A DNA stretch of 64,000 bases, from the NCBI GenBank assembly GCA_963730605.1, contig CAVSSM010000005.1, positions 28,606-92,605 of the forward strand, given 5' to 3'. Position 1 is the first letter of the stretch; each line of letters begins with the position of its first letter. Source of the DNA: an uncultured Chlamydiae bacterium (GTDB lineage Bacteria > Chlamydiota > Chlamydiia > Chlamydiales > SM23-39). The position numbers and the translations under genes are program-made. The notes under the pieces are model-generated. The model ran no database searches and was not told the origin of the DNA. It worked only from the letters and a program-made list of their open reading frames with translations. Below are positions 37,225-38,025 of the stretch, piece by piece.

Positions 37225-38025
37225 ATGCTATTGCTCACCTTTTTTCTTCCTTTTTTACTGATCGGCGCCACAGGGGCCCCCAAAGATGCATCATCGTTGG
37301 GGAAAAAAGGGGCTCCCAAAGATGCATCATCGTTGGGGAAAAAAGGGGCTCCCGAAGATGCATCATCGTTGGGGAAAAAAGGGGCTCCCGAAGATGCATC
37401 ATCGTTGGGGAAAAAAGGGGCTCCCGAAGATGCATCATCGTTGGGGAAAAAAGGGGCTCCCGAAGATGCATCATCGTTGGGGAAAAAAGGGGCTCCCGAA
37501 GATGCATCATCGTTGGGGAAAAAAGGGGCCCCCGAAGATGCATCATCGTTGGGGAAAAAAGGGGCTCCCGAAGATGCATCATCGTTGGGGAAAAAAGGGG
37601 CTCCCGAAGACGCATCGTCTTTGGGGAAAAAAGTTGAAAAGACCGATGCCGAATGGAGGGAGCGTCTGGGTCGAGAGCGGTATAACGTCATGCGGAGGAA
37701 ACATACTGAAGCGGCTTATTCCGGATCCTACCTCGATGAGGAAAGAAAAGGGATATATGTCTGCGCAGGTTGTGGCAACCCTCTTTTTTTCTCCCAAGAC
37801 AAATATAGCAAACCCGGGTGCGGATGGCCTCTATTCAAACAGGCCGCCGGGTCTAAAAATGTCGTATACAAAGAAGATCGGAGCCTCGGCTTCAAAAGAT
37901 ATGAGGTGCTATGTCGCTGCTGCGAGTCTCATTTAGGGCATGTTTTCAACGACGGCCCTCCCCCAAAACACCTCCGCTATACCATCAACTCGATCTCTCT
38001 ACTTTTGATAGTAAAAAACCCTTAA
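37225..38025 (+). CDS. msrB: Exported MsrB-like methionine sulfoxide reductase with N-terminal repeat insertion
   Basis: KTDAEWR..L...Y.V.R...TE, G.Y.CAGC..PLF, GCGWP, C..C.SHLGHVF.DGP; RYTINS in place of RYCINS. Confidence 0.88.
   Translation: MLLLTFFLPFLLIGATGAPKDASSLGKKGAPKDASSLGKKGAPEDASSLGKKGAPEDASSLGKKGAPEDASSLGKKGAPEDASSLGKKGAPEDASSLGKKGAPEDASSLGKKGAPEDASSLGKKGAPEDASSLGKKVEKTDAEWRERLGRERYNVMRRKHTEAAYSGSYLDEERKGIYVCAGCGNPLFFSQDKYSKPGCGWPLFKQAAGSKNVVYKEDRSLGFKRYEVLCRCCESHLGHVFNDGPPPKHLRYTINSISLLLIVKNP
37273..37632 (+). repeat. 10 x 36-bp tandem repeat of the palindromic core (GAP[KE]DASSLGKK)
   Basis: Unit GGGGCTCCCGAAGATGCATCATCGTTGGGGAAAAAA; 360 bp in frame; last copy nearly identical to the intergenic core at 4072. 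Confidence 0.97.

Follow-up and report, generated by a model that had tools for sequence, protein, structure and literature searches.

A 36-bp hairpin in protein-coding genes and MITE-like elements of one family of environmental chlamydiae

The msrB array and its hairpin unit

The window is a stretch of 64,000 nucleotides from a chlamydial source genome (G000; 2.22 Mb in 12 contigs, 83% complete; every genome compared was likewise incomplete). Its main feature is a gene of the msrB family with a tandem array of a 36-bp hairpin between a leader and the MsrB domain, and further copies of the hairpin lie in intergenic elements and in two other genes (Table 1). The window also codes for two neighbouring proteins (4182-6200 and 6766-8292) that combine ankyrin repeats with an N-terminal region resembling Peptidase_M91, as is typical of secreted proteins of chlamydiae, and holds unrelated tandem repeats in ORFs without a Pfam match (20549-20638 and 20803-20865, 30 bp; 26645-26740, 48 bp).

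Table 1. Hairpin-bearing features of the window and parts of the msrB-family gene
Feature	Position	Strand	Remarks
TA-flanked MITE-like element, one hairpin (4072-4101)	3946..4176	+	
TA-flanked MITE-like element, two hairpins (6428-6458, 6496-6525)	6347..6600	+	
TA-flanked MITE-like element, three hairpins (28350-28379, 28418-28447, 28484-28513)	28307..28639	-	
msrB-family gene, 266 aa	37225..38025	+	Carries the array; SelR/MsrB domain; RYTINS for RYC[I/M]NS
Hydrophobic N-terminal leader	37225..37270	+	Common to empty orthologues; putative signal peptide
10 head-to-tail 36-bp hairpin units, A-tailed subfamily, +120 residues	37273..37632	+	Predicted disordered
MsrB (SelR) domain	37633..38022	+	Fold predicted intact
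Decayed hairpin (44568-44598), then MITE end matching IS630 left end	44568..44642	+	Other end not found
TA-flanked MITE, one hairpin (49223-49252), inner part inverted, loop ATG	48985..49295	+	
48-bp in-frame insert (12-bp first-unit remnant plus full unit)	53253..53300	-	Antisense; 479-aa gene 52415-53854
66-bp in-frame insert (remnant plus decayed unit, AAGGCG at both ends)	58256..58321	-	FAD-binding gene 56955-58400

The array is inserted after residue 16 of the MsrB-family protein. Tandem Repeats Finder gives a period of 36 with 10.1 copies, 97% matches and 0 indels (37272-37633), and the 10 x 36 bp read by the initial annotation thus holds in the assembly. Units 1-2 are GAPKDASSLGKK and units 3-10 are GAPEDASSLGKK; between the last unit and the commonest intergenic core, 2 of 30 bases differ, in keeping with the near-identity annotated. 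The array is absent from the orthologues in G003, a genome of the same genus, and in G001. AlphaFold pLDDT values are ~45-53 in the array and mostly 75-93 in the MsrB domain, which is under purifying selection (dN/dS = 0.07-0.12).

The catalytic cysteine of MsrB is the Cys of the RYC[I/M]NS motif. The window protein reads RYTINS where solved MsrB structures have RYC[I/M]NS, which we take to be a replacement of the catalytic Cys by Thr, and the same RYTINS occurs in its empty relatives. Judging from this motif, the protein is probably no normal reductase; a second Msr match, of bifunctional size, was found elsewhere in the source genome. The RYTINS clade (proteins P0001-P0014, P0016-P0018 and P0020) is chlamydial, has a hydrophobic leader and Thr for Cys, and yet is conserved; a pseudo-enzyme or altered chemistry is possible. 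Several of the best named matches of the window protein are titled Chlamydiae, Chlamydiia or Parachlamydiales, and NCBIfam returned weak matches to collagen-like adhesins.

The 36-bp unit is composed of 2 variable bases, GGGG-N, an 11-bp stem (CCCC + 7), a 3-nt loop and 4 variable bases, and is predicted to fold as a hairpin. Its core begins GGGGTCCC or GGGGCCCC and is identical across genera; the loop is oriented and reads CAT in 126 of the 154 copies of the source genome. Of 24 distinct sequences, 11 have both bases changed at one stem pair and 10 at another; in 50 distinct variants these two pairs are Watson-Crick in 41 and 44 cases (25.3 expected for each), although these counts can be inflated by related sequences and by palindrome correction. 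Stem-base variants (n = 38) comprise 13 G.T and 0 A.C.

Two subfamilies are distinguished by their ends, AA...AAAA (11 of 37 solo copies) and CC...TGGG. The initial annotation assigned GGGAAAA tails to coding copies and GGGGT(G/A)GG tails to intergenic ones, a rule that is obeyed in the window and fails genome-wide, where the tails mark the subfamily: both kinds are found within and outside genes, with TGGG-tailed copies in frame at C1:164315, C3:9368 and C9:194829 and AAAA-tailed copies outside long ORFs at C4:67301 and C4:67415. Rfam covariance models gave 0 matches over any window copy at E up to 1. In single copies (49223-49252 in the window; C6:5383 of the source genome as compared with L059), the hairpin has its inner part turned round, with ATG as the loop, a sign of cruciform or template-switch inversion. 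Sister hairpins with a shorter stem, the same G-run/C-run frame and other loops reside in composite repeats of the source genome (C1:138077, C1:622265, C2:235967, C2:348543, C7:149616). An origin of the GCATC loop from a restriction site was rejected, as neither avoidance nor excess was seen (ratio 1.03).

At up to 3 mismatches, the window contains 18 core matches, against 0 in 100 shuffles. They represent seven of the eight intergenic sites listed in the initial annotation, the 10 msrB units, and the 53257 copy. All eight intergenic and three gene sites were recovered, the copies at 44568 and 58260 being more decayed and picked up only by looser searches. Genome-wide, the core is present in ~150 copies: 145 core matches (0 for a reversed-pattern control), 154 hairpins by a general definition (0 in the reversed genome), and 166 loci in 104 clusters at up to 4 mismatches, with 7 and 4 matches in two Markov controls. 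Single copies form 66 of the 104 clusters, and multi-copy clusters are mostly same-strand.

In a phylum-wide sample, the hairpin was found in 8 of 68 genomes of one chlamydial family and in 0 of 332 others; with a looser pattern, 26 of 102 family genomes carried it. It also occurs in 45 metagenome stretches. The viral contigs searched gave 0 matches, and the plasmids and phages searched gave hairpin matches at chance level only. The hairpin is restricted to one family of environmental chlamydiae. The source DNA also contains a TLC ATP/ADP translocase, which together with the titles of the named MsrB matches points to an environmental chlamydia.

MITE-like carriers and solo copies in genes

All eight intergenic copies of the window lie inside TA-bounded elements, the one ending at 44642 being one-ended. 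They had been taken for free hairpins and prove to be cargo of IS630-type MITEs. The carriers in the window are 230-330 bp long with the hairpin as an internal module, and a heuristic search of the source genome found the hairpin in 42 of 66 TA-bounded elements (155-476 bp). The carriers have the TA duplication, terminal inverted repeats, non-coding sequence and IS-shared ends of IS630-type MITEs; solo hairpins have blunt junctions or varied short repeats and fall outside this class.

The source genome has 14 copies of an IS630 whose left end recurs as one of the MITE ends: the left-end 16-mer has 37 matches there, vs. 14 for the right end. From these shared ends, the IS630 transposase would mobilise the hairpin-carrying MITEs. 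The 48985 element is wholly missing from G003, where a single TA remains. MITEs without and with the hairpin were observed at four internal positions (empty/filled: 2/6, 1/10, 11/25 and 2/15), indicating that the hairpin enters MITEs independently. Across the 102 family genomes, the presence of IS630 did not follow that of the hairpin (2 of the 26 carriers), which is uninformative because fragmented assemblies drop IS copies.

In G002 (L446), two tandem hairpin-free TA-flanked MITEs lie in frame in a gene of the FtsX/LolE type, in the same loop that holds a hairpin in G000. Further dispersed repeats at ~36650-36810, 53858-54030 and 56790-56957 of the window, with many matches in relatives or high depth in metagenome contigs, are probably additional MITEs.

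For the solo copies, the source genome was compared with 1.27 Mb of G003 (~1.7 Mb in total), with flanks mostly 80-95% identical and junctions read against a genome 8-12% diverged. The three window genes exceed their G003 orthologues by 360, 48 and 66 bp; the site at 53253 is empty in both G003 and G001, and that at 58256 is empty in G003. G000 has 40 non-MITE clusters. For 25 of them the compared part of G003 offers an orthologous stretch, which proved empty or shorter in 17 cases, shared in 6 and uninterpretable in 2, and for the other 15 it offers none; in the other direction, four hairpin copies of G003 are empty in G000. The hosts include genes for NAD kinase, inositol monophosphatase, an FtsX-type permease, a murG-domain protein and TamB, as well as murC-ddl, dnaX and priA. 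An inverted segmental duplication (C1:705483 and C1:735635) includes the FtsX-type gene together with its hairpin.

The insert length is a multiple of 3 at 14 of 15 measured coding sites of G000 and at 3 of 3 sites of G003, a count that is partly circular, an open frame having been the ground for calling a site coding; two G000 sites and one G003 site were unanchored, and some values include neighbouring indels. The exception is the gene of triosephosphate isomerase (TIM; C1:664489), with +26 bp relative to G003. This places its first ATG out of frame, and may reflect a homopolymer error or a downstream GTG start. dN/dS was 0.07-0.33 in 14 pairs.

All six frames are open in 21 of 37 solo copies, as compared with 332 of 3000 (11%) random 36-mers, and the 25 in-frame sites listed divide into 14 sense and 11 antisense, in line with the openness in both orientations noted earlier. 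The predicted translation of the hairpin uses several frames and both orientations across genes.

The msrB site itself provides a series of alleles. Empty relatives encode 146 aa and read ...AE followed by FELTD, so that the site lies between Glu and Phe. P0121, P0127 and P0001 have one unit (+11, +12 and +13 aa), and P0002 has a decayed dimer (+15 aa, ~1.3 units), which gives a length series of +0, +11, +12, +13, +15 and +120 aa, the last being the window gene; close relatives thus carry 0, 1 or ~1.3 units, and one short metagenome record (151 letters, run X6) implies ~2.7 units in frame. The site is filled in five alleles of differing length and always in the same frame. The tree of the MsrB domain requires 2-3 gains or losses, with a single origin not rejected (p-AU 0.079).

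Overall, these comparisons support the proposal of the initial annotation that a small hairpin has recently been mobile and adds new predicted peptide: the orthologues of all three window genes in G003 are empty, and the outcome that would have marked the inserted peptides as ancestral did not occur, as the G003 genes and the 146-aa MsrB relatives do without them.

Origin of solo copies and arrays

Insertion sites have no fixed target and no TA ends, and the empty sites share no target dinucleotide. Junctions are blunt at C11:108950, carry repeats of 3-8 bp elsewhere, and include a diverged duplicate of ~54 bp at C3:45022. In the latter region (C3:45022-45139), a small gene, presumably HPr-like by its motif, has its stop codon completed by the first bases of the hairpin, after which the ~54-bp duplicate of the gene end follows; this layout is repeated with a 93-bp period, and a similar one is seen in G003 (L186).

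Solo copies are clustered. Nine of 37 sites have a neighbour no more than 300 bp away (0.36 expected; at most 6 in 5000 trials), and 14 have one within 2.5 kb (2.9 expected). Near pairs differ at 5.4 of 36 bases vs. 10.0 of 36 (0 of 20000 permutations). It should be noted that the list of solo copies was hand-picked, that clustered pairs are not independent, and that tolerant genes or gene conversion could raise the clustering. The copy at C2:203911, absent in G003, has an inverted counterpart 152 bp away, and the match between the two takes in the hairpin with 8 and 11 bases of flank; it is the cleanest case. The best donor was local for 4 of 31 sites examined, and for most solo copies the template would therefore have to be a distant one. 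The greatest local density seen is at C4:66421-67439, where four hairpins surround a tRNA gene in a stretch of 1 kb, with further gains in G003 (L057).

Multimers show both growth and loss. In murC-ddl, a full head-to-tail dimer in G000 corresponds to a form 24 bp shorter in G003, with the deletion lying between AAAG repeats; the same loss also explains the 48-bp insert at 53253. Tandem units range from 36 to 93 bp. The TIM of G003 has 12 residues before GNWK, as compared with 5-8 in four same-genus genomes and ~8 in 30 family loci, and its four extra N-terminal residues look like a scar. The idea that GGGG is a target duplicated upon insertion is weakened, since the 'empty' TIM site of G003 may be such a scar.

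The best reading of these data, which we hold with slightly more confidence than doubt, combines MITE hitch-hiking, microhomology template switching and slippage. A selfish 36-bp hairpin would enter IS630-type MITEs at four or more internal positions and be multiplied as their cargo. A replicating or repairing strand would switch template at a few bases of microhomology, copy the hairpin with or without donor flank, and return, the donor of a new solo copy sometimes being a nearby hairpin. Slippage between G and A runs would yield head-to-tail multimers, up to 10 units in msrB, and would also delete 24 bp from dimers or leave scars of 10-12 bp. Three properties of the unit would let copies in genes persist: a length in whole codons, a sequence mostly free of stops, and insertion into loops or termini that tolerate it.

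The MITE route is demonstrated by the sequences themselves; for the pasting of solo copies, we infer template switching. The conserved core, the CAT loop and the compensatory stem changes would be expected if a protein recognises the hairpin, but could also result from palindrome correction and MITE transfer. The recurring 36-bp unit with defined ends is more regular than random patching predicts.

This regularity bears on a rival that we consider possible but the less probable, namely that a trans-acting single-strand enzyme, an HUH enzyme of the TnpA-REP/IS200 type or an unrecognised nuclease, is the mobiliser. Such an enzyme would bind the hairpin, be guided by the GGGG at its 5' foot, nick nearby and join strands; inserts of a defined 36 bp, short-range hops and tandem amplification would follow, in the way proposed for the BIMEs of E. 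coli. REPs, too, are imperfect hairpins with a tetranucleotide at the 5' foot, and in the BIME model transposition is likewise followed by local tandem amplification, both as given in the text of PMC3333891; the CGTC REPs, as described in PMC3733652, are similarly without a known partner. The conserved, oriented loop, the covarying stem, the recurring unit length and the common head-to-tail multimers all suit this explanation, as does the slight preference of solo copies for one strand (24 vs. 11, judged by crude GC skew), which the MITEs do not share. IS200/IS605 TnpA is present in the carriers G003 and G008.

Against it, none of the 30 Y1-transposase loci examined, out of 54 matches, holds the hairpin (one had a 5-mismatch match), so the flanking HUH/RAYT or IS200-type gene envisaged in the initial annotation did not appear; 0 of 12 scanned Y1 domains reached the RAYT cut-off, and the carriers G006, G007, G011, G018 and G020 gave no Y1 match. 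The Y1_Tnp search of the source genome returned one weak match beside a broken tnpB-like region. No nuclease or transposase recurred among the 62 ORFs inspected of 149 adjoining non-MITE copies, and the lack of a common target dinucleotide also speaks against an enzyme of this kind. DUF559 was found in 0 of 5 carrier genomes. A GxxExxY nuclease occurs in 5 of 5, the sole G000 copy having no adjoining hairpin, and GIY-YIG occurs once per genome in frames of 392-714 aa, taken as UvrC by size. As the genomes are incomplete (G000 at 83%), a mobiliser gene could be missing from the assemblies.

A rather doubtful extension is that the 36-mer forms a third, GGGG-tagged class of REP with a putative nuclease of its own, possibly a host repair or replication enzyme. 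Exact codon-multiple inserts, local hops and translated tandem repeats would then be its products, with IS630 MITEs serving as long-range vehicles; this we put forward just as tentatively.

An RNA route, in which hairpin transcripts would be reverse-transcribed from nicks and leave A-rich tails and variable duplications, appears improbable. The AAAA tails of one subfamily, duplications from 0 to ~54 bp, and the G.T-compatible variation of the stem base agree with it, and a reverse transcriptase is present in three copies in G000 (C1:286945, C4:461 and C8:30230, with equal scores and 445-aa frames, group II intron-like by size). However, this was the only one of five carriers searched with a reverse transcriptase, the other four giving no match; the tails are fixed at ~4 A, the other subfamily has none, and the inverted near neighbours suit DNA template switching better.

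That the msrB array was selected as a spacer or a variable surface repeat, its peptide being kept for function, is more improbable still. The recurrent filling of one site in a single frame, the 2-3 gains or losses on the tree and the purifying selection on the domain could be read this way, but other genes read the hairpin in several frames and both orientations, it is the DNA pairing and not the peptide that covaries, many close relatives are empty, and one origin with losses is compatible with the tree. On a paralogue without the catalytic Cys, the array would probably be a neutral, disordered linker.

The count of 10 units comes from the assembly. A second long array in G000, nine units in a larger composite intergenic repeat (C7:8767-9077), has units of 35-37 bp. 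An assembly artefact at msrB, to which these units, resembling homopolymer noise, and the fact that 0 independent metagenome records span the full array would lend themselves, is hardly credible, since the msrB units carry ordered variants, run X1 contains a 66-letter unit piece at depth 15, its flanks standing at 3-3.5, together with a 148-letter piece that connects the last unit with the MsrB domain (2 differences), and one-unit alleles occur in other data sets.

Relation to known repeat families and significance

The initial annotation had regarded the hairpin as an undescribed system, and Rickettsia palindromic elements as several-fold longer. Neither statement can be kept in this form: Di Nocera 2013 (PMC3733652) describes, in the text available, REP-size elements wholly within ORFs, including RPE-4 and RPE-6 of R. 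conorii, and intragenic REP clusters that encode 43-82 aa. In that text, some GTAG and CGTC REPs lie inside larger palindromes, and the CGTC class is without a known transposase.

As described there, the GTAG/CGTC REPs resemble the chlamydial hairpin in being imperfect hairpins of 20-40 bp with one unpaired foot tetranucleotide and a G.T-tolerant stem, in occurring singly and in clusters, some intragenic, and in high copy number (~150 copies here). Unlike them, the chlamydial hairpin has a GGGG-N foot with AAAA or TGGG on the other side and no GTAG or CGTC, a stem of 11 bp and a loop of 3 nt; most of its copies are MITE cargo, and it supplies 120 aa in one gene. GTAG/CGTC REPs are mostly inverted dimers according to the same text, whereas the chlamydial clusters are single in 66 of 104 cases and its multimers are head-to-tail on the same strand. 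The REP examples in the text of PMC3733652 do not include the chlamydial family, a comparison made by text description. From REPtron/RAYT systems the hairpin differs in flanking 0 of 30 Y1 loci, in incomplete genomes, and from the TIRtron repeats (GGGGWSAS in the text of PMC3733652), compared by that text motif, in the start of its core and in the absence of a flanking transposase.

RPE-1 to -3 are MITE-like, measure ~105-150 bp and encode a conserved peptide, as presented in the accessible text of PMC10969869 and PMC3184786. They share with the chlamydial hairpin the in-frame position of a palindrome in unrelated housekeeping genes of an intracellular bacterium, with empty orthologues; by the same descriptions, the chlamydial unit differs in its length of 36 bp within genes, in lacking terminal repeats and TA ends, and in its use of several reading frames. 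The analogue of RPE-1 is therefore the host MITEs and not the hairpin.

ERIC, RUP and Correia elements are IS630-linked MITEs. The class of IS630-type TA-flanked bacterial MITEs is treated in the available parts of PMC10969869 and PMC3184786. The chlamydial carriers agree with this class in their TA ends, terminal inverted repeats, single-TA empty site and IS630-shared end; the hairpin, in contrast, is a module that enters and leaves MITEs and also occurs solo without MITE ends.

The E. coli REP/BIME system, as portrayed in the text of Ton-Hoang 2012 (PMC3333891), is similar in its dispersal followed by local tandem amplification and in the greater similarity of neighbours; it differs from the chlamydial hairpin, which has no GTAG, no REP/iREP pair unit, no CT target and no linked RAYT found. 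The GC42 cluster of yeast mitochondria, according to the text of Wu and Hao 2015 (PMC4478555), is also a GC-rich palindrome of ~40 bp with presence/absence polymorphism, mergers, footprints and altered flanks. It is, however, organellar and has a fixed AG target duplication, and the likeness carries no claim of sequence relation. Our literature search, which left most subscription journals outside, found no paper on such repeats in chlamydiae.

What is new is an untagged palindrome of very small size, a variant of those known to invade genes in Rickettsia, with a life cycle that can be traced from monomer through head-to-tail dimer and partial deletion to 10-mer, and with local hopping besides. 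The record is unusually full, with empty sites, remnants, near-neighbour donors, and MITEs with and without the module, so that template switching and a dedicated enzyme can be directly tested against each other. The chlamydial hairpin thereby addresses the question of how short palindromes without a transposase spread, as posed by the CGTC REPs, RPE-4/6 and the mitochondrial GC clusters.

Taken together, our results offer a concrete route by which a low-complexity protein repeat is born from non-coding DNA, and they caution that a linker rich in repeats can, in genomes of this kind, be selfish DNA where an adhesin-like domain might be assumed. If the hairpin did belong to a GGGG-tagged REP class, it would be a minimal mobile element that repeatedly makes protein linkers and variable repeats in core genes of these chlamydiae.
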